Shown here piece by piece: positions 3,596 through 58,077 of a stretch of DNA of 64,000 nucleotides. The stretch is from Candidatus Saccharimonadota bacterium (GTDB lineage: Bacteria; Patescibacteriota; Saccharimonadia; Saccharimonadales; JACOTW01). The notes beneath the pieces were generated by a model. It did not search any database. It had not been told where the DNA came from and saw nothing but the letters and a program-made list of their open reading frames with translations. Location of the stretch: positions 1,064 through 65,063 of the forward strand of contig JACOTW010000012.1 of the NCBI GenBank assembly GCA_016178135.1, written 5' to 3'. The translations under genes were made by a program, and so were the position numbers. Position 1 is the stretch's first letter, and every line of letters starts with the position of its first letter.

Positions 3596-3739
3596 AATAA
3601 TGGTAATGAGAAGCAAAAAGCCGCGTTCTATAAAGGCTCTAGGCTCAAACTCCAGCTCTACGAATCAGGGTAATGATGTCTAATTTAGGGGCACTGGATA
3701 GACCCCATATGACAACAAACTACACTTCTCAAGGCTAGA

Positions 3740-3897
3740 CTGGACTTACGCAAAGCTCCCCCATCCCCAGATCAATTCATCTTGGCTGGTAGCGATCTGT
3801 CTTCTCTCGATGTAGCTATGGCTACCTCTCCTTTAGCCAAACCACTCCCAACTCGAGCTGATTTAGCCTGGGAACGGGCGATTTTGCGTAAGTCCAG
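3740..3897 (+). mobile_element. Family-A element, copy A2 (158 bp), intergenic
   Basis: Perfect 16-nt inverted termini. Direct TAGA at 3736-3739 and 3898-3901. Confidence 0.9.
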
Positions 3898-3926
3898 TAG
3901 ACCTTGTACTCCTTCGCCGGGGTTGT

Positions 3927-4956: not shown

Positions 4957-5424
4957 TTACATTCTGTTGCTGTTTAGAGCAATCTGACCCGTAGCCATTA
5001 ATATACATTTAGGGCGTCCATCTATGATTGGGTTTGATTCTCCTCTGTTGGTTGTGCCTGGAATATAGCGGTGCCATTCGCCTAGTAAATTAGTTTCATT
5101 ATCTTCACATACTTTTATAAGGCTTAATGCTACTGCCTCATAGACATGTCCGGCACTTTGTTCTATCTCTATCTCAGGATAAAGCAAACTAATCACCTCA
5201 CCCCAATCACGGGAATACGCTGTTAAGGCTATTTTTGACATATGACCGTATGTTTTTCCGTTGAGCCTATGACGCACAAAATTAAATAATACTTCTGTAT
5301 CTAATGGGGACGGGTTTGTAGGTACAATAATTGGAGGTAGTAAAAAGTCTGATCTCTCGTTGATCGGTATACCTTGATAGCCCAAAGTTTCGGGGTCGGG
5401 CGACGCCACTTCACGTGTGTTCAT
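4957..5424 (-). CDS. Hypothetical protein
   Basis: 155-aa ORF. No recognisable motif. Confidence 0.45.
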   Translation of the reverse strand: MNTREVASPDPETLGYQGIPINERSDFLLPPIIVPTNPSPLDTEVLFNFVRHRLNGKTYGHMSKIALTAYSRDWGEVISLLYPEIEIEQSAGHVYEAVALSLIKVCEDNETNLLGEWHRYIPGTTNRGESNPIIDGRPKCILMATGQIALNSNRM

Positions 5425-5673
5425 GTTTGCATTTCCATAGCTTTTTATAAGATGCCTATTATTCCACTATGCTCCGTTTCTAAAATGTGTCAAGTATTTA
5501 TATGGTTCATGACGTAAATTGCTTTAGAATGTCATGTTTGTCTCATTTAACTGATAACGAACATAAGGCGCAATGGTTCTAGGCCGGTATGTCCAGCCAG
5601 GATTATTACAATACGTCTCGTGCTATTTTAAAAATATAAACTCACCTGATTTAATATTGGCTTATCGACAGGG

Positions 5674-6168
5674 CTAAACCGCAAATATGTTACCAACTAT
5701 TATGCCGATCATGGTTGCCAAGCCACCTATTATGAAGATTTCTAAAGCACTTTTGATTGGTGGGACATCAACAACCTTGCCCTTCACATAACCTAGTGCT
5801 AACAAGCATATCAAGGCTGCAATTATAGCAACGTTTCTTGAATAGCTAATCGGGAAGAAGATAATGGCCAGTAATGGTACTAAGCCAGCAAGAAAATACG
5901 CCCAAAACATAATAATGCCACTTACTACGGGAACTCTAAAAGACTCACTTTTATCAAGTTGATGAGCAGATTTAGAACTAAGATACTGACCTGAACCCAT
6001 AGAAAGAGCTTCAACTAAAATAGTTACTACGCCAGCCAAGATAACCACCTGTTTATTGCGCGTGCCGGTGCTGATACCTACAATGACACCAGTTGTTGAG
6101 ACCAAGGCATCATTAAACCCAAACATAGCACTCTGTAGATATTCTTTTTGTATACTGGATTTTCTCAA
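5674..6168 (-). CDS. VIT1/CCC1-family membrane protein (iron/manganese transporter-like)
   Basis: FGFNDALVSTTGVIVG and EALSMGSGQYLSSKS resemble the conserved VIT-family segments. C-terminal TM helices. Confidence 0.65.
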   Translation of the reverse strand: MRKSSIQKEYLQSAMFGFNDALVSTTGVIVGISTGTRNKQVVILAGVVTILVEALSMGSGQYLSSKSAHQLDKSESFRVPVVSGIIMFWAYFLAGLVPLLAIIFFPISYSRNVAIIAALICLLALGYVKGKVVDVPPIKSALEIFIIGGLATMIGIIVGNIFAV

Positions 6169-6246
6169 GATTTAACCCCTAAATAACATTGTACTCCAGC
6201 AGACCTCTTTCACAACCCTCCAGGGGCACAACAAACCACAATGTTA

Positions 6247-6580
6247 TTCCGACACACATTTCGCACTTTTCCATTGCCCCAGTTCACTCCTAACTGGCTA
6301 CAAACTATTGATCTGCCCTCCATGTAGCTACAGCTACCTCTCCATCAGTTCAACAGTTTTCGCTCAGCTATAGCCATTCCAAAACAAAATGACCAAATTT
6401 TGAGTGATGGATGATGAGTCTAAAAACTAGCTTTCTTTGACTAAAGCATATCCGTAGATATGCTGCAGACAAAAAAGTAGTTTTTAGATCATCAGGCGCA
6501 GACAAAAATGGTCATTTTGTTTTGGGATGGCTATAGGCGCAAACTGGCATCAACGGCTAAGTGCGAAATGCGTGTCCGAG
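6247..6580 (+). mobile_element. Composite: divergent family-A element (termini GACACRCATTTCGCAC) interrupted by a family-B-like element
   Basis: 6251-6268 GACACACATTTCGCACTT is the inverted complement of 6559-6576. The interior aligns to A4 (GGCTACAAAC...GTAGCTACAGCTACCTCTCC...CAGTTTTCGCTCAG) up to the nested insertion. Confidence 0.7.
6368..6536. mobile_element. Family-B-like variant element (169 bp) nested inside the composite
   Basis: Termini CTATAGCCATTCCAAAACAAAATGACCA ... TGGTCATTTTGTTTTGGGATGGCTATAG. Confidence 0.75.
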
Positions 6581-6589
6581 TTAAGGTAT

Positions 6590-8482
6590 CTAAAGCTTGC
6601 AAATGGCTAGGGTACATTTGATTTTAACGGATTTTGAAGGACCAGCCGCACGATTACCGTCCCTGTCAACTGCAAAAACCCGATAGTTAAAGTTACTAGT
6701 TTTGTTTATATTGTCTGTGTAATATTGATCATCTGGCGAGTTGACGTATAGCTTAACGGCTGGCTTATTATCTGTACTGCGCCATACCTCGTATCCCTTG
6801 ATCTGGTTATCATCCGTAGCGAATGGCCAAGATACATAGATCTTACACTTAGACTTAGCCGAACAATTATTTTTCCACCAGTTTGTATCAAAACCACTTT
6901 TCATGCTCGCGTTACTTGGCCAAACCGGAGCATTACCACTAACGGTTTGCGTAGTCGTAACCGTAACTACGACACCACTGGATGTTGTATCTAGTCCTTT
7001 ATCATCAGTAGCTTTGGCTTTAAATGTATAGGTGCCTGCCGGATAGTTACTGATACTAAATGAATAGGGGGACGATGTATCGGTGCCGATTTTAGTATTG
7101 GCTGAATAGAATTCAACCTTGCTAATTGTACCATCTTGATCATTCGCACCGGCAGTTAGCGTGAAGTAAGCCGGAGCTACAATTGTTGCCGCTGGATTTT
7201 TTAGGGTTACTGTGGGGGCTATATTATTTGGTGGTGGCGGTGCCGACTTGGCTAATACCGTAATCGATAATGACGTACTGGCTTTATTGTTATTAGAAGA
7301 TGAAGAGTTATCAGTGGCAACTGCACGTAGGCTATGAGTGCCCGGAGCTAAGCCACTAACCGTCGTACTGTAAGGAGCTGTGTTGTTGACCGATATACTG
7401 GTGTCGCCGTTAAAAAACTCTACTTGCTTGATGGCTCCATCGGTGTCATTGGCATTCGCTGATAATGTAATGGAGCTTCCGGCAGCAAACTCTTGACCGT
7501 TGACGGGGCTTGATATGCTGATAGTTGGTGGTAAATTAGTGGTCGAGCCTTTATTATCGCCACTGGTTCGGCACGGTGTACGTGGTCCGTTGAGGTCCAA
7601 ATTCATTAAATAAGCGTCATAGTTTTTGATGGATGCATCTTTACAGCTGGCACTCGTAGGCCAACTACTGGCACCACCTTTATATTCAATTACAAAGACT
7701 GCCTTATTAGCGTTGACAAAAGGCTTGTAAGTATCACATTCATTATATTCATAACATTGCTCTACAATCGCAAAGTCATGGGCGCTTATTACAGATTTGC
7801 CGTTAGGCAGGTTTTTATTGACTAAATCGCCACTATTTTTTAAGGCTACTGATAGATTAAAGCTATGTCCGGTATTGGTAAGAAACTGTAGATAATCTAA
7901 AGTGGTTGTTTCGTTGAGTGGTATATTGCTGGCATTTGTATAGGCATCAACGTTATCTGGTTCTATGCCATCGCAACCCAAGCTACTCATGGTTTGGATG
8001 CGGTTATACATTATGGATCGTACATTGGCTGAACGTGTGTCAACAATAAGTTCGCCCTCCCATCCGGGAAGTTGTCCGAATGTATCACCGGGAAGAAATT
8101 GGCTATGATCTGGTCGCCAATCTTCATCCGTTCCGGCCGAAAAGTAACAAATAACAGTTATGCCCTTGGCCTTAATACTAGCAATTTGGGTAGCATTTGA
8201 GTTGAGGTAATCAAAATCATAAACTTTTGGTCCGGATTCGGCGTCCATGACTTTTTCGTTTGGTGCGCCTTGCAATAACCACGCGAAACGACTATTTGGT
8301 TCCACTGGCTTTAAGGTCGATGCGGCAGAAATGCTAAGTGTTAGATAGGTGCCTATTACCCCAAAAACTATTAAGGCAAGCCACCTTTTACTGATTTTGC
8401 TTATGAATTTATTGGATGACGACCGTAGTTGTTTGGTGGTATTAGATTTTTTTTGCTTAGCAATTTTTGTAGTTTTTTTCAT
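6590..8482 (-). CDS. Secreted GH114-like (endo-alpha-1,4-polygalactosaminidase-type TIM barrel) protein with Ig-like repeats and an FN3-like C-terminus
   Basis: N-terminal signal/TM. VICYFSAGTDEDWRPD ... GWEGELIVDTR ... GCDGIEPDNVDAY resembles the Glyco_hydro_114 pattern. Two repeated about-90-aa beta-rich modules. Confidence 0.6.
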   Translation of the reverse strand: MKKTTKIAKQKKSNTTKQLRSSSNKFISKISKRWLALIVFGVIGTYLTLSISAASTLKPVEPNSRFAWLLQGAPNEKVMDAESGPKVYDFDYLNSNATQIASIKAKGITVICYFSAGTDEDWRPDHSQFLPGDTFGQLPGWEGELIVDTRSANVRSIMYNRIQTMSSLGCDGIEPDNVDAYTNASNIPLNETTTLDYLQFLTNTGHSFNLSVALKNSGDLVNKNLPNGKSVISAHDFAIVEQCYEYNECDTYKPFVNANKAVFVIEYKGGASSWPTSASCKDASIKNYDAYLMNLDLNGPRTPCRTSGDNKGSTTNLPPTISISSPVNGQEFAAGSSITLSANANDTDGAIKQVEFFNGDTSISVNNTAPYSTTVSGLAPGTHSLRAVATDNSSSSNNNKASTSLSITVLAKSAPPPPNNIAPTVTLKNPAATIVAPAYFTLTAGANDQDGTISKVEFYSANTKIGTDTSSPYSFSISNYPAGTYTFKAKATDDKGLDTTSSGVVVTVTTTQTVSGNAPVWPSNASMKSGFDTNWWKNNCSAKSKCKIYVSWPFATDDNQIKGYEVWRSTDNKPAVKLYVNSPDDQYYTDNINKTSNFNYRVFAVDRDGNRAAGPSKSVKIKCTLAICKL

Positions 8483-11996: not shown

Positions 11997-13408
11997 ATTC
12001 TGAACCAAACTTGCCCTTGTTTTGTGTCGCGCACGCCGATACCTTCTCCTGCAAGCCTATCACGAAGTTGGTCTGATTTTACCCAGTTTTTGTTGTCCCT
12101 TGCCTTTTGTCTTTCACTGAGGGTTAGCTTTTGGGCATCTGATATATTGCTACGATTAGTTAAGTCTAGACCCAGAATCTGGTCAATATAGTCCAATAAG
12201 TTCTTAAAATAACTTAGCTGATCTTCTTCAATTGTGAAGTGCAACATATCAGCCGTTAAGTCGCTGACTTGTTTTAGTACCTCCGGCAGATTTATGTCAT
12301 CTTCGATAGCTTTCTTGATGCTCTCAAGGTGTTTGAGAAAATCTCCTTCAACCAGACCCGACTCGCCTTTGGTTCGCGTCTGGAATACTAAGTCTGCCAT
12401 TGCTCGGATATCTTTTATACGGTTTTGGGCGGCCTCGAGGTTTGTCCAGGTGAAATTGCTTTGGCTACGATAGTGGGATTGTAGAACCATCAGGCGGAAG
12501 GCTAGCGGGTCAAGATCATTGTCCTGTATATCTTGGAGGGTGAAAAAATTATTTAGTGATTTACTCATTTTTCTGCCATCAACCAGTAGATGCTCGTTAT
12601 GGATAAATATATTCGCGAGCGTTGGGTTGGCTTTACCTGCGGTGCTTTGAGCAATCTCGTTTTCGTGATGTGGAAAAATCAAATCTACGCCTCCGGTGTG
12701 AATATCAAAAGGTTGTCCAAGCGTGTTAGCACTCATAGCCGAACACTCGATGTGCCAGCCCGGTCGGCCATCAAGTTTCTTGCCGTCCAGTGTAAAATCC
12801 CAGATTGGTTCGTCCGCTTTTCCGATTTTCCATAGCGCGAAATCATGTGGCGAATCTTTATCGTATTCATCATTTTGAATACGTGCCGAGGAAGTATTAC
12901 TGTCCGTGATATCCAGTAGCTGGCCATACTTTTTGCCACTGTCTCGATATTCTTTAATCGAAAAATACACGCCATCGTCGGCTATGTACGCGAAGCCATC
13001 GTCATGAAGTTTTGTGATCAGGGCTTTCATATCTTCAATGCGATCGGTAGCATTTATAAACTTAATGGACTCTACATCACAGCCGACGCTCCGCATATCA
13101 TCCAGAAATAGTTTAGAATATTCGGTGGTTAGTTTCTTTAGCGCTTGTTTGGGGTCGAGATTGGGGTATTTTTCTTTACTTCGCTTGATAGTTTTATCGT
13201 CTACATCAGTAAAGTTCATGACATGATCGATCTCGTAGCCACTGGCTCGCAAGGTTCGACTCAGTGTATCGGCATAGATAAAGCTAGCCAAATTACCAAT
13301 GTGTATATGATCATAAACTGTCGGGCCACAAGAATAAATCGACACCTTTTTATTATTCAGTGGCGTAAAATCTTCAATCTCTCGTATAAGTGTGTTATAT
13401 AATCTCAT
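11993..13408 (-). CDS. cysS: Cysteinyl-tRNA synthetase
   Basis: CGPTVYDHIHIGNL (HIGH) and KMSKSLNN motifs. Confidence 0.95.
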   Translation of the reverse strand: MRLYNTLIREIEDFTPLNNKKVSIYSCGPTVYDHIHIGNLASFIYADTLSRTLRASGYEIDHVMNFTDVDDKTIKRSKEKYPNLDPKQALKKLTTEYSKLFLDDMRSVGCDVESIKFINATDRIEDMKALITKLHDDGFAYIADDGVYFSIKEYRDSGKKYGQLLDITDSNTSSARIQNDEYDKDSPHDFALWKIGKADEPIWDFTLDGKKLDGRPGWHIECSAMSANTLGQPFDIHTGGVDLIFPHHENEIAQSTAGKANPTLANIFIHNEHLLVDGRKMSKSLNNFFTLQDIQDNDLDPLAFRLMVLQSHYRSQSNFTWTNLEAAQNRIKDIRAMADLVFQTRTKGESGLVEGDFLKHLESIKKAIEDDINLPEVLKQVSDLTADMLHFTIEEDQLSYFKNLLDYIDQILGLDLTNRSNISDAQKLTLSERQKARDNKNWVKSDQLRDRLAGEGIGVRDTKQGQVWFRI

Positions 13409-14580
13409 GACTTGTCTGTAATTTTATCAAGTAATTCTGTGGCGATGGTTAGGCATTCGGTTTTGACTGCTTGCGCTGTGCGACTGTCCGTGACCTTGAA
13501 GCCACTGGCGTAAACGTGCCCACCACCGCCAAAATGAGATGCCAAATCGGCCGCGATGCTGGCACCGGCATTACATCGGATTGAACCGGTAATTTTGCCG
13601 TCATTATAAACTTTCAAGACTATCGCTACTTTTACGCCTTCGGTTTGTAGCATGTCTGTTTGAATAAGTGGGGCTGGATTGTATAGCGGACTGTATTTCA
13701 TTAGTTCATCATGCCCAATACTGACTAATGCGATTCTGTCATCGCTCAATAATTCAGTTCTGTCTATCAGGGTAGCTTTGTATTTAAAAATCGTTTTGGG
13801 CATCTTGGCCTGTGCGCGACGAGCTTCCTCGAGTTTTATTCTGTTAACTCCGCCCTCTATGAGGTCGGCCATAATTCTATAGGTATTTGGCGTTGTGCCT
13901 TCGCTGGAAAGCCCCAGGGAATCTGATAGGATTGAACTAGTGATATGGGTTTTTGCCTGGAGGTTGAGCGGCCAGTTTAGCTCATCGGCCAGTTTATAAA
14001 TCACTTCGCCGGTTGCTACGGCATCATGATCATTTATGACAAGTGTAGCGTAGGTTATGTCGCACTCCACATCAGTGTGATGATCGAGTACGATTACTGG
14101 CTTGGAAGCTACGATGCTTTTGTAGCTACTGTTGTCGAGTTTCTCCAGAAGGATTGCAGCACTAGTGTCTACTATGATGCTTAAGTCGATTTTGTTCGGA
14201 ATCTCCTTACTGACTCTGTCCCAGCCGTCCAAATGACGCAAGTATTCTGGAATATTTACACCACAATACAGAAATGTTTGCTTGCCTGCGTCCCCCAGTA
14301 TTTCCTCAAGTGCCAGGGCACTTCCCAGACTATCCCCATCCGGGTTATCCGCCTGGATTATTGCAATCCGCTCTGATTCATCAACCAACTTCTTAATACC
14401 CTGGTATAGCCCCCGCAAAACAAATTCGGGGGTTTTGGAGCCGATGATCTTCGAGTCAAAAACTGGCTTTTCTGAGGGAAGCATATCATTAGATAAGGTG
14501 AGTGAGGAAAGACAGCTTTTGACCGGAGAGGGCGGTTCAAAAAGCAGTGAATTTGTTTTGCGGGGGCTATAATTATTCAT
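13405..14580 (-). CDS. DHH/DHHA1 phosphoesterase (NrnA-like) carrying an in-frame family-B element after codon 3
   Basis: DNPDGDSLGS, DHH and GGGH motifs. ATG overlaps the recR stop (ATGA). Confidence 0.8.
   Translation of the reverse strand: MNNYSPRKTNSLLFEPPSPVKSCLSSLTLSNDMLPSEKPVFDSKIIGSKTPEFVLRGLYQGIKKLVDESERIAIIQADNPDGDSLGSALALEEILGDAGKQTFLYCGVNIPEYLRHLDGWDRVSKEIPNKIDLSIIVDTSAAILLEKLDNSSYKSIVASKPVIVLDHHTDVECDITYATLVINDHDAVATGEVIYKLADELNWPLNLQAKTHITSSILSDSLGLSSEGTTPNTYRIMADLIEGGVNRIKLEEARRAQAKMPKTIFKYKATLIDRTELLSDDRIALVSIGHDELMKYSPLYNPAPLIQTDMLQTEGVKVAIVLKVYNDGKITGSIRCNAGASIAADLASHFGGGGHVYASGFKVTDSRTAQAVKTECLTIATELLDKITDKS
14405..14571 (+). mobile_element. Family-B element, copy B1 (167 bp including both TA), intragenic
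   Basis: Termini TATAGCCCCCGCAAAACAAATTC ... GAATTTGTTTTGCGGGGGCTATA. Confidence 0.9.
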
Positions 14581-15595: not shown

Positions 15596-15762
15596 TATAG
15601 CCCCCGCAAAACAAATTCGGGGGTTTTGGAGCCGATGATCTTCGAGTCAAAAACTGGCTTTTCCGAGGGAAGCATATCATTAGATAAGGTGAGTGAGGAA
15701 AGACAGCTTTTGGCCGGAGAGGGCGGTTCAAAAAGTCGTGAATTTGTTTTGCGGGGGCTATA
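15596..15762 (+). mobile_element. Family-B element, copy B2 (167 bp), intergenic
   Basis: Differs from B1 at 4 positions by manual alignment. Same orientation. Confidence 0.9.
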
Positions 15763-15765
15763 AGC

Positions 15766-16944
15766 CTATTGACGAATGAAGGCTGCTTTAGTTTCAGGCG
15801 CGTTTGGCCAAGCTATAAAATACTGGCTTATATGATAAAAACTAGTCAGAGCTACCGTGATAACAATAAGACCAGTGCCAATCGTATGGGCTAGTGGGTT
15901 ACGAGGAAAGACTGTAAGCCATTGTTGCAATAATAGGGCTAGGCCAGCCGCACCTATAATGTAAATGAATGGCATTAAAATCAATAGTTTTACTGGGCCG
16001 CCAATTGATACCAGTATAAAACCAATAATTGATACCGCAGCGAGTAGCCTGGTACGGTCCAGCTTGACACTAAACCAATAAGCGTAGAGACCAACCGCAA
16101 ACATCGTGATATTGAACACATCAAGTAATGGTATGGTTCCAAGCCAATGAGCTGGATCTTTGGGGCCACGCCAAAGCAGTTGCCTAGGTATGGCTAACGC
16201 GTTATCGAATACTTGTTTGATAGTTGGCCAATGGTCTGGCAATCCTAGTAGTGGTCTTAAGATTTCGGGCTTTAACCACACGGCTCGTAAAAGTGGAACA
16301 ACGAGTAGTAATACAGCTATAGTCCAGAGTACGCTAAGCCATAAGGGCATTTGGTTGAGCGTGGTAAATATTCGTTTTCGTTGCCAAAATAGCCCAGGCA
16401 ACACAAACCAGATTAAACCCGGTATGTACAGTAATAGTGTACCTATAATAGCTAGCCCAAAAAGTGTTATACTTGGCCACTTACCCTTCTTTAACCATAT
16501 ACCAAATAGCACCAAACTTAGTAAGGCAGTGTAAAGAATGTCTGGAGTTCCTAATCTTGCCGCGTGTAGAAGCCAGCTGGATGAGGCGAACAAAGCAGTT
16601 GCCATGAAGGCGATTCTTGTGGTATGCCATGATCGAATAATCAAGTAAAACAACCAAACAGCTAGCAATCCAAAAAGTGCACTCACGCTTCTTAGGACAA
16701 AGATACTATGACTACCAAATATCTGAATAACGGCGGTTAGTGCCGCATGTGGCAAGTTTAGGGGTTTGTTCGCTACTAGATTAAGGTTTGCGTTGTTGGC
16801 GGCATAGGATAGTTCGGATTGATGTGGTCCAATCGTCAATGAGCCAAGCTTAAACCAGAATAGGCCAACTATAAATAGTGTAGAAATGCCTATGATAAGA
16901 GCTGGTTGCCAATTATCGGCTATTATTTGACGAAGCTTATTCAT
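15766..16944 (-). CDS. Polytopic membrane protein, GT-C/ArnT-PMT-like glycosyltransferase candidate
   Basis: ORF 15766..17124. ATG at 16944 (MNKLRQ...) is chosen because residues 1-60 are translated family-A repeat. More than 10 TM helices. Confidence 0.5.
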   Translation of the reverse strand: MNKLRQIIADNWQPALIIGISTLFIVGLFWFKLGSLTIGPHQSELSYAANNANLNLVANKPLNLPHAALTAVIQIFGSHSIFVLRSVSALFGLLAVWLFYLIIRSWHTTRIAFMATALFASSSWLLHAARLGTPDILYTALLSLVLFGIWLKKGKWPSITLFGLAIIGTLLLYIPGLIWFVLPGLFWQRKRIFTTLNQMPLWLSVLWTIAVLLLVVPLLRAVWLKPEILRPLLGLPDHWPTIKQVFDNALAIPRQLLWRGPKDPAHWLGTIPLLDVFNITMFAVGLYAYWFSVKLDRTRLLAAVSIIGFILVSIGGPVKLLILMPFIYIIGAAGLALLLQQWLTVFPRNPLAHTIGTGLIVITVALTSFYHISQYFIAWPNAPETKAAFIRQ

Positions 16945-17032
16945 GAATTTCTTAAGTAGTATACATCGAAAAAGGAAAAACTGTTTGCAACCGGCTTGGG
17001 ACAAGCTGGTATCAACGGCTAACTGGACCTGT

Positions 17033-17182
17033 CGCAAAACTCCTCCATCCCCAGATCGAATTCTATCGGCTACAAACAGTTTTTCTTCTCTCGATGTAGC
17101 TACGGCTACCTCTCCTTCAGACAAAACAGTTTTCGCTCAAGATAATTCACTCTGGGAACGGACGATTTTGCGACAGATCCAG
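17033..17182 (+). mobile_element. Family-A element, copy A4 (150 bp, CTGTCGC subtype), intergenic
   Basis: CTGGACCTGTCGCAAAAC ... ATTTTGCGACAGATCCAG. Flanks are CTAA and TTAA. Confidence 0.85.
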
Positions 17183-17200
17183 TTAAGTTCAGTAAAAAGA

Positions 17201-27610: not shown

Positions 27611-27676
27611 GTCGTATATTGTACGGAATGTTTTGATATTTGCACAACCTTATGTGGAAATATTACAACTATTCTA

Positions 27677-27836
27677 CTGGACCTGTCGCAAAACTCCCCC
27701 ATCCCCAGACCAATTCATCTCGGCTGGTAGCGGTCTGTCTTCTCTCGATGTAGCTATGGCTACCTCTCCTTCAGTCAAACCACTCCCACCTCGAACTGAT
27801 TTGCCCTGGGAACGGGCGATTTTGCGACAGGTCCAG
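27677..27836 (+). mobile_element. Family-A element, copy A6 (160 bp, CTGTCGC subtype), intergenic
   Basis: CTGGACCTGTCGCAAAAC ... ATTTTGCGACAGGTCCAG. Direct TCTA at 27673-76 and 27837-40. Confidence 0.9.
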
Positions 27837-27873
27837 TCTAGAAGTCAATTTTCCTGAACCCAGAGTTTGATGA

Positions 27874-32915: not shown

Positions 32916-33638
32916 TTAATTGTACACGAGTTTCGTATGAGCAAAATGAGGTTGTTTAGATCGTATAACGCGTCGTGCGTCAGCTACGTTTGGCAAGTAT
33001 AGAGCAAGTTCTGACCAAAATGGTTCACCGTGGCGCATGACTTTGGTATGAACAAGTTCATGGAGCAAAACGTAATCAATTAATTCCCAGGGAAGCTGCA
33101 TTAAAAAACAATTAAGAGTGATCTCTTTTTGCTGATTACAGCTTCCCCAGCGGCTAGCCAGCCGTTTTATTTGAACGTTGCGATACGAAAATCCATGCCT
33201 AGAAGCGTGTTCCGCGAGGCGACTGGGGAGTAACTTTTGGGCCTCGACTGTTAGAGCTTTGATCGCAACGCGTTCGGCGGCTTTTTGAACTTTTTGGCTT
33301 TCTATAGCAATTGACCTAGGGTAAATAACTCTTGCCTCATTGCCGACCAGCCTGGTTGTTATCCGTTGGCCAGCAACGGATGGTATAAAAATAAGGCTGT
33401 GAGCTTTACCGATTCGCATATTAGAGCTTAAAAGAGTACTACTGTTTGTCTGGTGTTTTAGTATCCAGTCTTGTTTGGATCGAGCAAATTCAATACCGGC
33501 CTTATACGGCAACCATTTAGGCATTGTTACCCTGATGCCACCGACAGCACTCAAGCTAATACGCAGATTACTACTCCCTCGTCGTTTGTACAGTTTAATA
33601 ATGCCGATCTCTGGCAAATCAAATTCTTTTACTGACAT
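32916..33638 (-). CDS. YgjP/DUF45-like zinc metallohydrolase
   Basis: HELVHTKVMRHGEPFW (HExxH). ATG at 33638 is chosen because upstream residues are translated repeat. Confidence 0.7.
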   Translation of the reverse strand: MSVKEFDLPEIGIIKLYKRRGSSNLRISLSAVGGIRVTMPKWLPYKAGIEFARSKQDWILKHQTNSSTLLSSNMRIGKAHSLIFIPSVAGQRITTRLVGNEARVIYPRSIAIESQKVQKAAERVAIKALTVEAQKLLPSRLAEHASRHGFSYRNVQIKRLASRWGSCNQQKEITLNCFLMQLPWELIDYVLLHELVHTKVMRHGEPFWSELALYLPNVADARRVIRSKQPHFAHTKLVYN

Positions 33639-33650
33639 GTTTTTATTATA

Positions 33651-33890
33651 CTGGGCCTGTCGCAAAATCCCTCGTTCCCAGGACGAATCAGCTCGAGCGA
33701 AAACAGTTTTGTCTGAAGGAGAGGTACCCAGGAGGTATAGTCCCCGCAAAACAAATTCGTGGGTTTTTGAAGCAATGATCTTTGAGCCAAAAACTGACTT
33801 TTCCGAGAGAGACATATCCTTAGATACGTTGAACGAGGAAAGGCGGTTTTGGGCCAAAGAGGGTGATTCGAAATTTTGCGACAGGCCCAG
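33651..33890 (-). mobile_element. Composite: family-A element (CTGTCGC subtype) carrying a nested truncated family-B element
   Basis: CTGGGCCTGTCGCAAAATCCC...GGTACCCAGGAG | TATAGTCCCCGCAAAAC...GATTCGAAA | TTTTGCGACAGGCCCAG. Direct TATA at 33647-50 and 33891-94. Confidence 0.85.
33736..33873 (+). mobile_element. Family-B subtype B' (right terminus missing), copy B3, nested in A
   Basis: 138 nt. Differs from B4 at 2 positions by manual alignment. Confidence 0.85.
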
Positions 33891-33978
33891 TATAGGACCT
33901 TCGTACTTTGTCGCCAATTCCAGAGTAATCCTGCAGCCCTCTAGGATTGGTCTGGGGTGATGAAAAAGTAGGAAAAAC

Positions 33979-34641
33979 CTATCTTATTACTATGTTGCGG
34001 CGTGAGTTGTTGACTCGACCAGCCATTGGGTTGGGGATAAGATTGACCAGACCAGGCTTGGCACGTCCGATGTTTGCGGTTGCAGTATCAATTAGACCTA
34101 GATCGTATAATTTTTTCATTATGGCTGATCGTTGCGTTGTGAAATTATGTTTGCCACTGACAACAATACATTCCTCTGTAGCATTAGGGTTCTGCATGGC
34201 GTTGGCTATTTGCTCAAAACTGGTGCGATCGAGGGGCATAGCGTAGCGGTCATCTATTTTTCGGCGATCTCGTTTTGCTACGCGCGTAAAGGCACTTTCT
34301 AGGTCAATTTGCAACCAAACCAACAGGGGGTGAGCTTTTGTCTTGCGGGCCATGTCTCGTAGTAATCGTCTTTGACTGAAACGCAGAGCGTTGACATCAA
34401 ACACGACGCTAATTCCAGCATTTAAAAATTCTTCTGTCATGTATTCCATTAGATGGGTTACTATATTGTTTTCTTGGCGATCAAGACGAGGCTTTTCGAA
34501 TAATTCATTACGAATCCTGTCGCCGTTTACGTGTGCGGCGTTAATCTCATCACAAAGTTGACGCGCAAAGTAGGATTTACCCGACCCCGGATAACCGTAA
34601 AGCAATATCAGGGCTGGACGTGTGAGACTTAATTTACTCAT
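33979..34641 (-). CDS. P-loop kinase/ATPase (AAA_33 / zeta-toxin-like fold)
   Basis: LLYGYPGSGKSYFARQL Walker A. ATG at 34641 is chosen because upstream residues are translated repeat. Confidence 0.6.
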   Translation of the reverse strand: MSKLSLTRPALILLYGYPGSGKSYFARQLCDEINAAHVNGDRIRNELFEKPRLDRQENNIVTHLMEYMTEEFLNAGISVVFDVNALRFSQRRLLRDMARKTKAHPLLVWLQIDLESAFTRVAKRDRRKIDDRYAMPLDRTSFEQIANAMQNPNATEECIVVSGKHNFTTQRSAIMKKLYDLGLIDTATANIGRAKPGLVNLIPNPMAGRVNNSRRNIVIR

Positions 34642-34701
34642 TCCTATTAAATTATAACAATTAGACAAAATTTGCAAAGTTTTGTTTCGGGTGATTATAG
34701 A

Positions 34702-34861
34702 CTGGACCTGTCGCAAAATCCCTCGTTCCCAGGGCGAATCAGCTCGAGCGAAAACAGTTTTATCCGAAGGAGAGGTACCAGGGAGGTACATCGAGAGAGG
34801 AAAAACTGTTTGCAGCCGAGATTAGTCGGTCTGGGGATGAGGGATTTTGCGACAGGTCCAG
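34702..34861 (-). mobile_element. Family-A element, copy A9 (160 bp, CTGTCGC subtype), intergenic
   Basis: Perfect termini. Direct TAGA at 34698-701 and 34862-65. Confidence 0.9.
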
Positions 34862-34882
34862 TAGAATACAACCGAACCGCGT

Positions 34883-35462: not shown

Positions 35463-36152
35463 GTGAGCAGTTATAGCCCCCGCAAAACAAATTCGTGGGT
35501 TTTTGAAGCAATGATCTTTGAGTCAAAAACTGACTTTTCCGAGAGAGACATATCCTTAGATACGTTGAACGAGGAAAGGCGGTTTTGGGCCAAAGAGGGT
35601 GATTCGAAAAGAGCTTATTATCTAACACAGTTTGACGCGCTGGAAGCTCTAGACAACGGTGTTGGTAATTGTTTTTCGAAAGCTATGGTTGCATGTGGAA
35701 TAATAGTATTAAAATATGCGGTTGAGCCGTCAATAGTTTATAAAAAGTCGATACATGGCTCTAAAGATACTGCGATTGATAAGCCTACGGACTCAAAAAC
35801 AGGCAAAAAAATCGCGCATGTGGTTGTAGCCGTACCCGGTTCAAATCCAACTACAGATAAATCTATTCCGGGCTTGAATTTTGGAGTAGCAGTTTCCCAA
35901 GGAGTTAAATTTACCCAAACAGATGCAGGTGAAATACTACAGGATTATAATGAACCCGGAGAATTTGTACGTGTTAATGAAACGGGCACAGTGATTGCTA
36001 CTGAAATTGCTACTGAACGGGGTATGTTTGGTGATAGGTGGCGGGATATTGCTCCAGATTATTTACAAGCTTTGGACAGACCTGACCTGGACATAGATCT
36101 CTTAATTGGTAAGCTCAAAGAATCATACCCAGATGATCAAGTTGCGGCATAG
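35463..36152 (+). CDS. Hypothetical protein. The first about 49 codons derive from family-B element B4. Possible Cys-His peptidase-like core.
   Basis: GTG start at 35463. No alternative ATG before residue 75. GNCFSKAMVAC ... AHVVVAV noted, but this is a weak motif. Confidence 0.4.
   Translation: MSSYSPRKTNSWVFEAMIFESKTDFSERDISLDTLNEERRFWAKEGDSKRAYYLTQFDALEALDNGVGNCFSKAMVACGIIVLKYAVEPSIVYKKSIHGSKDTAIDKPTDSKTGKKIAHVVVAVPGSNPTTDKSIPGLNFGVAVSQGVKFTQTDAGEILQDYNEPGEFVRVNETGTVIATEIATERGMFGDRWRDIAPDYLQALDRPDLDIDLLIGKLKESYPDDQVAA
35472..35610 (+). mobile_element. Family-B subtype B' copy B4 (right terminus missing)
   Basis: TATAGCCCCCGCAAAACAAATTCGTGGG...GGGTGATTCGAAA. Confidence 0.85.
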
Positions 36153-40331: not shown

Positions 40332-40526
40332 GTGCCGTATGCACCATACGAACAAGTGCCTGAGCGTGTCTGGAGGTTTGATGGAACTACAGATGTGCAT
40401 GCAGTTACAGGTAAGGGATACACATCACGTAACCGTTTATTGGTATACGCGGATGGTGAAGATACTAAGTTCACCCAAATTTTTGAAGACGAGTACGACC
40501 CGGCTCCAGAGACATCGCAGATATAG
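40332..40526 (+). CDS. Hypothetical protein (start uncertain; frame open from 40251)
   Basis: 64-aa ORF from GTG. Acidic C-terminus. Confidence 0.35.
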   Translation: MPYAPYEQVPERVWRFDGTTDVHAVTGKGYTSRNRLLVYADGEDTKFTQIFEDEYDPAPETSQI

Positions 40527-40544
40527 CCCCCGCAAAACAAATTC
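40522..40544 (+). repeat. Orphan family-B left terminus
   Basis: TATAGCCCCCGCAAAACAAATTC, 23/23 identical to the B1/B2 terminus. No matching right end nearby. Confidence 0.8.
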
Positions 40545-40568
40545 CCTCACACGGCTTTTATATAGAGT

Positions 40569-43121: not shown

Positions 43122-44188
43122 GAATCCAGTAAATTAAAAAATTCTTCGGGTACTGGCACCTGAAATGTCATGTGCTTACCATTTTTCAGTGTAAGCTCTA
43201 GTTTTTCGGCGTGAAGGTATAGCCGATCAGCGGACTGGCCGTCGTATATCGTATCCCCTACAATAGGATAGCCTAGCTTTTTTAAGTGCACGCGTAGTTG
43301 ATGGGTGTGCTCAGTGCGCGGTTTTAGTTCAACTAAATCATAATTTTTTCCTGATTTAACAACATTGTATTCCGTTTGTGCCGTTTTGCCATTTATGCCA
43401 GTTCTAAATGTCTGTGGATGCTTAGGATTCCGCTCTATAGGCATATCAATAATCGCATGCGCAGGTATAATATGGCCAAAAACCACTGCTTTATAAGTTT
43501 TATATACCTTACGTGTAGAGAATTGCTTTTGAAGCCAGCTAAGCGAAGTATTGTTTTTGGCGCAAATAATAACCCCAGAGGTCGCCCTATCCAGACGATG
43601 AACAATCCCCTCTCGAGTTTGCATGGAAGATTTCTGCGAGTCCGATAAACTGGACTTACCCAAAGCTCCCTCATCCCCAGACCGACTAACCTCGGCTACA
43701 AACAGTTTTTCCTCTCTCGATGTACCTTCAGGTACCTCTCCTTCAGACAAAACTGTTTTCGCTCGAGCTGATTCGCCCTGGGAACGAGGGATTTTGCGTA
43801 AGTCCAGTAAACTAGTATTTTGTTGTCTAGCATGTTTATTCAAGTGATCGAATAGCCAAGTTGCGATGGTTGCTTCGGGATTGAACGCTCCTTTGCTGTG
43901 CGTCAACAACCCAGCTGGTTTATTTATAACAACACAGTCGTCATCTTCGTACAAAACCGGCAATTCTATTCTGGGTATATCTTCAGTTGTATTTGGATCA
44001 AAATCAATGTTAATTTGATCTTCTAACCTTAGTTTATATCCGGTTTTTTTGATCTCGTCTCCTACAGTTATAAACCCTCGGTTGCATAATTTTTGAACAT
44101 GCGCCCTACTGATTTGAGGTAATTTGTTATGTACAAAAACATCAAGCCTCTCTCCTGCAGAGGTTTTAGGCACCGTTACTTGTATCAT
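43118..44188 (-). CDS. rluD: RluD-type 23S rRNA pseudouridine synthase (S4 domain + RluA core) with in-frame family-A element
   Basis: N-terminal S4 domain (ERLDVFV...). Catalytic HRLDRATSGVIICAKN. Confidence 0.85.
   Translation of the reverse strand: MIQVTVPKTSAGERLDVFVHNKLPQISRAHVQKLCNRGFITVGDEIKKTGYKLRLEDQINIDFDPNTTEDIPRIELPVLYEDDDCVVINKPAGLLTHSKGAFNPEATIATWLFDHLNKHARQQNTSLLDLRKIPRSQGESARAKTVLSEGEVPEGTSREEKLFVAEVSRSGDEGALGKSSLSDSQKSSMQTREGIVHRLDRATSGVIICAKNNTSLSWLQKQFSTRKVYKTYKAVVFGHIIPAHAIIDMPIERNPKHPQTFRTGINGKTAQTEYNVVKSGKNYDLVELKPRTEHTHQLRVHLKKLGYPIVGDTIYDGQSADRLYLHAEKLELTLKNGKHMTFQVPVPEEFFNLLDS
43650..43807 (+). mobile_element. Family-A element, copy A11 (158 bp), intragenic in rluD
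   Basis: CTGGACTTACCCAAAG...ATTTTGCGTAAGTCCAG. Direct TAAA at 43646-49 and 43808-11. Confidence 0.9.
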
Positions 44189-53533: not shown

Positions 53534-53575
53534 AACAAGAAACCTCCGATTGCGGTAGTAATTTGTAGATATAAA

Positions 53576-53733
53576 CTGGACTTACGCAAAATCGCCCGTT
53601 CCCAGGCTAAATCAGCTCGAGTTGGGAGTGGTTTGACTGAAGGAGAGGTAGCCATAGCTACATCGAGAGAAGACAAACCGCTATCAGCCGAGATGAATTG
53701 GTCTGGGGATGGGGGAGCTTTGCGTAAGTCGAG
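53576..53733 (-). mobile_element. Family-A element, copy A15 (158 bp), between rpsH and rplF
   Basis: CTGGACTTACGCAAAATCGCCCG...GAGCTTTGCGTAAGTCGAG. Direct TAAA at 53572-75 and 53734-37. Confidence 0.9.
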
Positions 53734-53811
53734 TAAAGTATTATCACAAGCCTCCATAAGACCTGTCCTAACCATTCTATATTCTACGTTATATGTTGCT
53801 TTACTCATCTT

Positions 53812-57818: not shown

Positions 57819-57848
57819 TATACGATTCCCCTAGAATTATTGAATAGA

Positions 57849-57991
57849 CTTGACTTACGCAAAATCGCTCGTTCCCAAGGCGAATTAGCTCGAGCGAAAA
57901 TAGTTTTGTCTGAAGATACATCGAGATATGAAAAACTGTTTGCAAGCGAGGTTATTCGGTCTTCGGATAGGACAACTTTGTATGAGTCCAG
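57849..57991 (-). mobile_element. Family-A element, copy A16 (143 bp), between rplV and rpsC
   Basis: CTTGACTTACGCAAAATCGCTCG...CTTTGTATGAGTCCAG. Direct TAGA at 57845-48 and 57992-95. Confidence 0.85.
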
Positions 57992-58077
57992 TAGAGGCCT
58001 ATGGGATAGCCCCCAGCGAATTACCAGATACGAAGACCTGTTATCTATTACCTGTAATCTGTAATCTGATAATTTCA

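Follow-up and report, generated by a model that had tools for sequence, protein, structure and literature searches.

A hairpin repeat family in a Saccharimonadota genome that is very probably an IS630-derived MITE

Two nearly identical hairpins lie on either side of the ybaB-recR genes in the 64-kb window (the whole stretch of DNA that was analysed, from an uncultured Candidatus Saccharibacteria, or Saccharimonadota, genome of the Patescibacteria/CPR), which raises the question of what kind of element they are and what moves them. An earlier note, made from the sequence alone, had described them as copies of a mobile hairpin family (family B) with terminal inverted repeats (TIRs) and TA flanks, and had proposed that one trans-acting enzyme mobilises this family together with a second one (family A). 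The description of family B is borne out by the present analysis, and the proposed common enzyme is not.

Copies of family B in the window

The two intact copies, B1 (14405–14571) and B2 (15596–15762), are both 167 nt long and lie on the forward strand in the same orientation; B2 is made up of 163 nt of element and a bordering TA left and right, and TA stands at both ends of every MITE copy of the family. Alignment confirmed the earlier count of 4 differences in 167 nt (positions 69, 118, 141 and 142; 97.6% identity) and the separation of about 1 kb, with a start-to-start spacing of 1191 nt. The 23-nt terminus TATAGCCCCCGCAAAACAAATTC is present without mismatch at each of the four ends (14405–14427 and 14549–14571 in B1; 15596–15618 and 15740–15762 in B2), and with up to 3 mismatches it has 7 matches in the window, compared with 0.00 expected from shuffled sequence. 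The arms had been judged complementary over their full length, and the predicted fold of B2 is indeed a hairpin over almost its whole length (-86.1 kcal/mol, z = -10.7), with 0 of 200 shuffles equally stable. B2 is intergenic, 3 nt past the stop codon of a PMT_2-like gene and upstream of ybaB-recR, while B1 lies in frame after codon 4 of a DHH/DHHA1 (NrnA-like) gene. Three of the six reading frames are stop-free in both subfamilies of B, compared with about 0.2 open frames expected by chance on a rough estimate; the two frame-0 readings are not independent of each other since the element almost equals its reverse complement. The G+C content of the window is 41–46% throughout.

Two further copies on the forward strand, B3 (33736–33873) and B4 (35472–35611), had been regarded as a truncated subtype. 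The truncation is real, with B3 cut at element position 138 and B4 at position 140 and the right TIR missing from both, and the assignment can be refined. B3 and B4 are only 81% and 83% identical to B2, but share 96.4% and 97.9% identity with a complete copy of 167 nt in another Saccharibacteria metagenome-assembled genome (MAG; locus L005, 5771–5937, the sole B copy noted there), and they therefore form a second B subfamily. The nearly identical endpoints of B3 and B4, and the loss of exactly the right terminus from each copy, are hard to account for by simple chance decay. A family A element (33651–33890) encloses B3: the A left arm is followed by B3 and then by the 17-nt right terminus of A, TTTTGCGACAGGCCCAG, and TATA borders the unit at either end. 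The stop-free frame of B4 continues into a 229-aa ORF at 35463–36152. A solo B terminus without an element body lies at 40522–40546 on the forward strand; its exact 23-nt match (40522–40544) had been recognized before, and alignment to the B3/B4-type end lengthens it to 25 nt. This terminus was also considered as the end of a full-length insertion sequence and was rejected as such, since a small membrane-protein ORF and unrelated sequence follow it, with no transposase ORF. Family B is thus dispersed as four copies and one solo end within the window.

Two stretches that had been linked to family B are set apart from it. The element at 6368–6536 on the forward strand, formerly listed as a B variant, is a real 169-nt hairpin with TA flanks and the termini TATAGCCATTCCAAAACAAAATG / TATAGCCATCCCAAAACAAAATG. 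These termini begin with TATAGCC and read TCCAAAAC or CCCAAAAC at the position of CGCAAA; its arms are 80% self-complementary, all six frames contain stop codons, and its interior gives no blastn match to B2. Judged by its sequence, it is a separate, related family and not a member of family B. With its TATAGCCATTCC termini it directly abuts a family A fragment (6270–6369) in the 6270–6536 region, so that repeats cluster or nest there. The stretch at 58005–58022, which had been called weakly terminus-like, has only ATAGCCCCC in common with the B terminus and has no partner arm.

Insertion at a TA, timing and spread

The flanking TA had been thought indistinguishable from a part of the terminus, and a site without the element settles this point. 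A metagenome contig (L007) with about 90% nucleotide identity to the window in the DHH gene and cysS has the same dnaB-PMT-ybaB-recR-DHH order without B1 and B2. Its empty site reads ATGAATAGCTATCGT, compared with ATGAATAATTA[163 nt]TACCAG in the window; at the recR/DHH junction, ATG AAT AGC TAT CGT… in L007 corresponds to ATG AAT AAT TA[TAGCC…GGCTA]TA C CAG… in the window. B1 thus entered at the TA in Tyr codon 4 and lengthened the gene by 165 nt net, or 55 in-frame codons, which resolves the insertion into a 163-nt element and one duplicated TA. When these 165 nt are removed, the N-terminus of the DHH protein in the window is MNNYQGIKKLVDESERIAIIQAD, equal in length to MNSYRDAGKLINKSQRIVIIQAD in L007. 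A single TA duplication is a hallmark of IS630/Tc1-mariner transposition, and the comparison of the filled and empty B1 sites, at one site and with a relative that is about 10% diverged, is consistent with the TA duplication typical of IS630. A 4-bp TATA duplication was rejected, as the reading frame of the DHH gene would then have been broken prior to the insertion. At B2, and at the family A copy at 17023, the intergenic regions are too diverged from L007 to define exact junctions.

The DHH/DHHA1 phosphoesterase gene that carries B1 (13405–14580, reverse strand) starts with an ATG at 14580 that overlaps the recR stop codon (ATGA). Its ORF encodes 391 aa, compared with 330–345 aa in 119 homologues, and the DHH domain begins at residue 71. 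The 55 inserted codons contain no stop in the frame used; given three stop-free frames out of six, B1 landed in the Tyr4 codon of this NrnA-like gene without breaking it. The predicted protein would either carry 55 added residues or have its start moved to an internal Met; NCBI, which assigns the identical DHH protein to Candidatus Saccharibacteria, annotates it at 359 aa with the start at Met33 inside the MITE. DHH and cysS overlap directly in the window (13405–13408), unlike in L007, in which they are separated by an ABC-transporter gene with family A copies on its flanks (5008–7131). This difference suggests a MITE-associated gene gain or loss.

The recent activity proposed for B1 and B2 agrees with their distribution among strains. 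A sister-strain contig (JBFOMR010000191.1 of GCA_040960765.1; locus L001) matches the window at 99.0% identity over 6.6 kb and encodes its RecR protein. The presence of both copies in two strains that are about 99% identical, and their absence from the roughly 90% identical L007, supports a fairly recent insertion. In addition, contig JACPYE010000006.1 of GCA_016196105.1 shares 11.3 kb with the window at 100% identity. The window and GCA_040960765.1 show 63 differences over the 6.6 kb, and 58 of these cluster in about 480 nt of cysS (12444–12923), which looks like a recombination tract between strains. As for the second subfamily, the alignable genes of L005 are only 72–80% identical to those of the window, although B3 and B4 are 96–98% identical to the L005 copy, which suggests a horizontal spread of B-type elements.

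Parent insertion sequences and alternative explanations

An exact search of one genome per prokaryotic species found the B terminus in four other Patescibacteria genomes, and a search of viral contigs gave 0 matches. Together with an inverted partner, the terminus bounds 1.1-kb elements at L003 (2–1106), L004 (5115–6248) and L006 (55–1194). The L003 and L004 elements contain one ORF each, of 345 and 348 aa, with DDE_3 and HTH_29/32/33 domains, and both ORFs are matched by the NCBIfam model of IS630 family transposases (NF033545; 185 and 202 bits, cutoff 100). The IS630 family is Tc1/mariner-like and of the DDE type. The transposase stop codon sits within the right terminus (…IPEFVLR*). Similarity between the MITE and these insertion sequences is confined to about 32–42 nt at each end, and the central ~100 nt of B has no counterpart in them. 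The pattern TATAG-NNNN-CGCAAAACAAATTC is kept at both ends in eight distinct insertion sequences, a comparison to which four further transposase clusters (51–73% identical to the L004 transposase) were added, so that the transposases range from 51 to 100% identity to that of L004; TA is outermost on every full-length element whose end lies inside its contig. The L004 transposase has 777 homologues, and among the 120 matches listed nearly all are on contigs of 1–2 kb, as contigs break at repeats. The full-length elements derive from a Minisyncoccia MAG, "Patescibacteria group" MAGs and unclassified short metagenome contigs, with Saccharibacteria shown as host for none, and one transposase of the clade carries a Poribacteria label in NCBI. 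In the Minisyncoccia contig, the full-length element is adjoined by a 150-aa ORF (L003, 1201–1653), which we take by eye to resemble a TnpA of the IS200/IS605 type.

The search for a candidate transposase that the earlier note had called for gave no homologue: tblastn with the IS630 transposases over 74 kb of the genome found none in the 64-kb window and none in the 10 kb past its end, which indicates that the B copies are non-autonomous. The IS630-identical termini, the TA flanks, the empty site, the multiple near-identical copies and the absence of any transposase coding sequence from the element together identify family B, with high confidence, as a MITE (a short non-autonomous DNA transposon) whose TIRs are those of an IS630-family insertion sequence circulating among Patescibacteria. 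Mobilisation presumably occurs in trans, and we infer that the transposase is supplied from outside the element, by a gene elsewhere. Such an IS630-family transposase would bind the TAG-NNNN-CGCAAAACAAATTC block in each B terminus through its N-terminal helix-turn-helix domains, cut out the 163-nt element and paste it into a TA dinucleotide, which would be duplicated on insertion.

Family B could instead be primarily a structured RNA or regulatory element (an sRNA, a terminator, an mRNA stabiliser or an RNase III site) and not a transposon. The hairpin is very stable, B2 is placed 3 nt past a stop codon and upstream of an operon, and other bacterial MITEs affect mRNA processing (PMC2229807); however, the termini of B equal insertion-sequence ends, its presence differs between close relatives, and its copies stand in unrelated contexts, including within a coding sequence and within another repeat. 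Promoter- and terminator-like sites around B1 and B2 are no commoner than in shuffled sequence. No Rfam family fits B either, as the scan of the window with Rfam 15 gave no family at any of these elements and matched only tRNAs and an L10 leader. A primary role as RNA is thus very improbable, while a secondary RNA effect of an IS630-derived MITE is possible. The closeness of B1 and B2 raises the separate question of whether two independent transpositions took place, or a local duplication, a gene conversion or the movement of a composite unit carrying ybaB-recR. The two copies flank these genes in direct orientation about 1 kb apart at 97.6% identity, and B1 of the sister strain has only 2 differences from B2 of the window, which could reflect gene conversion. 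Nevertheless, the MITE-free L007 has ybaB-recR in the same dnaB-PMT-ybaB-recR-DHH order, which indicates that the segment itself has not moved; B1 and B2 have their own TA flanks and different outer flanks, and the insertion of B1 is nucleotide-exact within a codon. A local or composite origin of the pair is accordingly extremely unlikely.

The remaining alternative concerns the enzyme: according to the earlier note, a single trans-acting enzyme mobilises families A and B through a common CGCAAA core. Both families occur in the window and in L005, and both termini contain CGCAAA(A) about 8–16 nt from the tip; chance alone would only fairly rarely place a common 7-mer at nearly the same offset (~1% on a rough estimate, before allowing for post-hoc choice). 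The hexamer does occupy positions 10–15 in both families as counted in that note, but when counted from the true element ends, as set by the duplications, it lies at 8–13 in B and at 10–15 or 11–16 in A. It is also conserved, as had been asked, but as part of a 14-nt block that is specific to the IS630 clade: in B, CGCAAA(A) belongs to the longer block CGCAAACAAATTC, which is preceded by A to give CGCAAAACAAATTC, and the rest of this block is absent from A, so that the two termini have only CGCAAA(A) in common. A comparison of the two properties that define a mobilisation group, duplication length and parent transposase family, showed that both differ. The duplication is a 2-bp TA in B and 4 bp in A (TTTA, TAGA, TCTA, TAAA or TATA, in 8 of 10 intact copies), and its length is a fixed property of a transposase; the parents belong to the IS630 family for B and to the IS701 family for A (L055, 74–1156). 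Moreover, the B terminus is found in none of 120 A-bearing metagenome stretches (0.87 Mb, 31–64% GC). The different parent families and duplication lengths leave a single enzyme unsupported and highly unlikely. The common CGCAAA(A) is best read as a coincidence, and a common host factor behind it is formally possible.

Family A itself is an IS701-type MITE. It occupies 17 intervals and 2.2 kb of the window, compared with 0.8 kb of B-related sequence, and its copies include 913–1072, 3739–3898, 17022–17183, 27676–27837, 34701–34862, 43647–43808, 53575–53734 and 57848–57991, among others. It resembles B in its length of about 160 nt, its hairpin, its high copy number in the same genome and the CGCAAA(A) in its terminus; in contrast to B, it has a 4-bp TNNA duplication and a terminus that delimits an IS701-family element, and it occurs in many genomes without B. 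The identical TNNA flanks of the 8 intact copies are TTTA, TAGA (three copies), TCTA, TAAA (two copies) and TATA. In the wider metagenome set, 15 of 45 distinct A-terminus elements have identical 4-bp flanks, and most of the mismatched 158–161-nt elements still have TNNA on both sides. A metagenome scan with the A terminus yielded 120 stretches, most of which are MITE-sized pairs, and this terminus heads many different short hairpin families on contigs of 31–64% G+C. The parent element (L055, 74–1156) spans 1083 bp, carries CTGGACTTACGCAA at either end and contains a 343-aa ORF that is assigned to the IS701 family transposases (NF049921; 383 bits, cutoff 250). The IS701 family makes 4-bp duplications (ISfinder family table), for which a literature search found no support. 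tblastn with the IS701 transposase gave nothing in the window, and the A terminus has 3 matches in viral contigs, with unrelated flanks and no partner arm, which is about the chance number for an 18-mer. Some A copies (53575–53734 and 57848–57991 in the window; 9650–9813 in L143/L144) lie between ribosomal-protein or translation-factor genes, at S8/L6, L22/S3 and fusA/tuf, operons that are normally tightly packed and conserved.

Related elements and effects on genome annotation

Family B is related to the IS630 elements of Patescibacteria (L003, L004, L006 and L132–L141), which share with it (near-)identical terminal 21–33 nt and TA on both sides. The last codons of their transposases (…EFVLR) lie in the right terminus, and the peptide contributed by B1 to the DHH protein terminates in these codons as well. 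Unlike these elements, B has no transposase gene, and its central ~100 nt is unrelated to theirs and forms a foldback. The Stowaway MITEs of eukaryotes follow the same superfamily logic, being derived from Tc1/mariner elements with a TA duplication, borrowed IS630/Tc1/mariner termini and cross-mobilisation, although their hosts are eukaryotic and their sequence is unrelated to B. [quoted passage not shown] RUP and B are alike in being short, non-coding and multi-copy, with IS630-like TIRs, TA insertion and a presumed mobilisation in trans (PMC2229807). RUP, however, is 107 bp long, intergenic and without an open frame, whereas B has 163 bp plus TA, three of six frames open and one copy inside a gene. 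Their sequences and host phyla are unrelated, and the insertion sequence cognate to B came to light in other genomes only.

RPE, ERIC, YPAL and the 107-bp Correia element are stop-free MITEs for which in-frame fusion to genes is described (PMC2229807). Like B, these are palindromes of 100–170 nt with stop-free frames that are fused in frame to conserved genes, and the RPEs of Rickettsia also occur in a reduced genome (PMC2229807). B1 has the corresponding properties, as it lies in frame in a conserved gene, introduces no stop and places its 55 codons after Tyr4 of the predicted protein. Neither a parent transposase nor a clear target duplication has been identified for RPEs, and B has both. 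Family B is thus of an ordinary kind with a textbook mechanism, and it is mildly notable for its setting in an under-studied phylum. A full-text literature search for MITEs together with Patescibacteria returned two papers only, with a single passing mention in each, and nothing relevant was found for MITEs with Saccharibacteria or candidate-phyla-radiation terms; MITEs thus appear to be undescribed in Patescibacteria.

Patescibacteria genomes are gene-dense and about 1 Mb in size, and yet the A and B elements fill about 4.7% of the window, sitting in coding sequence and between ribosomal-protein genes. We tentatively suggest, as a combined proposal that is rather doubtful in its entirety, that MITEs are an unrecognised force in streamlined Saccharibacteria genomes through horizontal passage, cross-mobilisation and stop-free persistence in genes. 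If so, B-type copies would pass horizontally between naturally competent episymbionts (96–98% identity of copies against ~72–80% of genes), and IS630 elements resident chiefly in other Patescibacteria classes may cross-mobilise B. Like RPEs in Rickettsia, the elements would then persist within essential genes and operons thanks to their stop-free frames, and add peptide segments to the conserved products.

The elements can also serve as markers for strain history and horizontal transfer, and they make gene callers add false N-terminal extensions, so that their recognition would improve the annotation and assembly of Saccharibacteria MAGs. The stop-free frames allow ORF callers to extend genes through A and B copies at 15766–17124, 32916–33917, 33979–34791 and 35463–36152. 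The extended genes are the PMT_2-like, YgjP-like and AAA_33 genes and the 229-aa ORF; their Pfam domains start well downstream, and their N-termini are therefore probably annotation artefacts.
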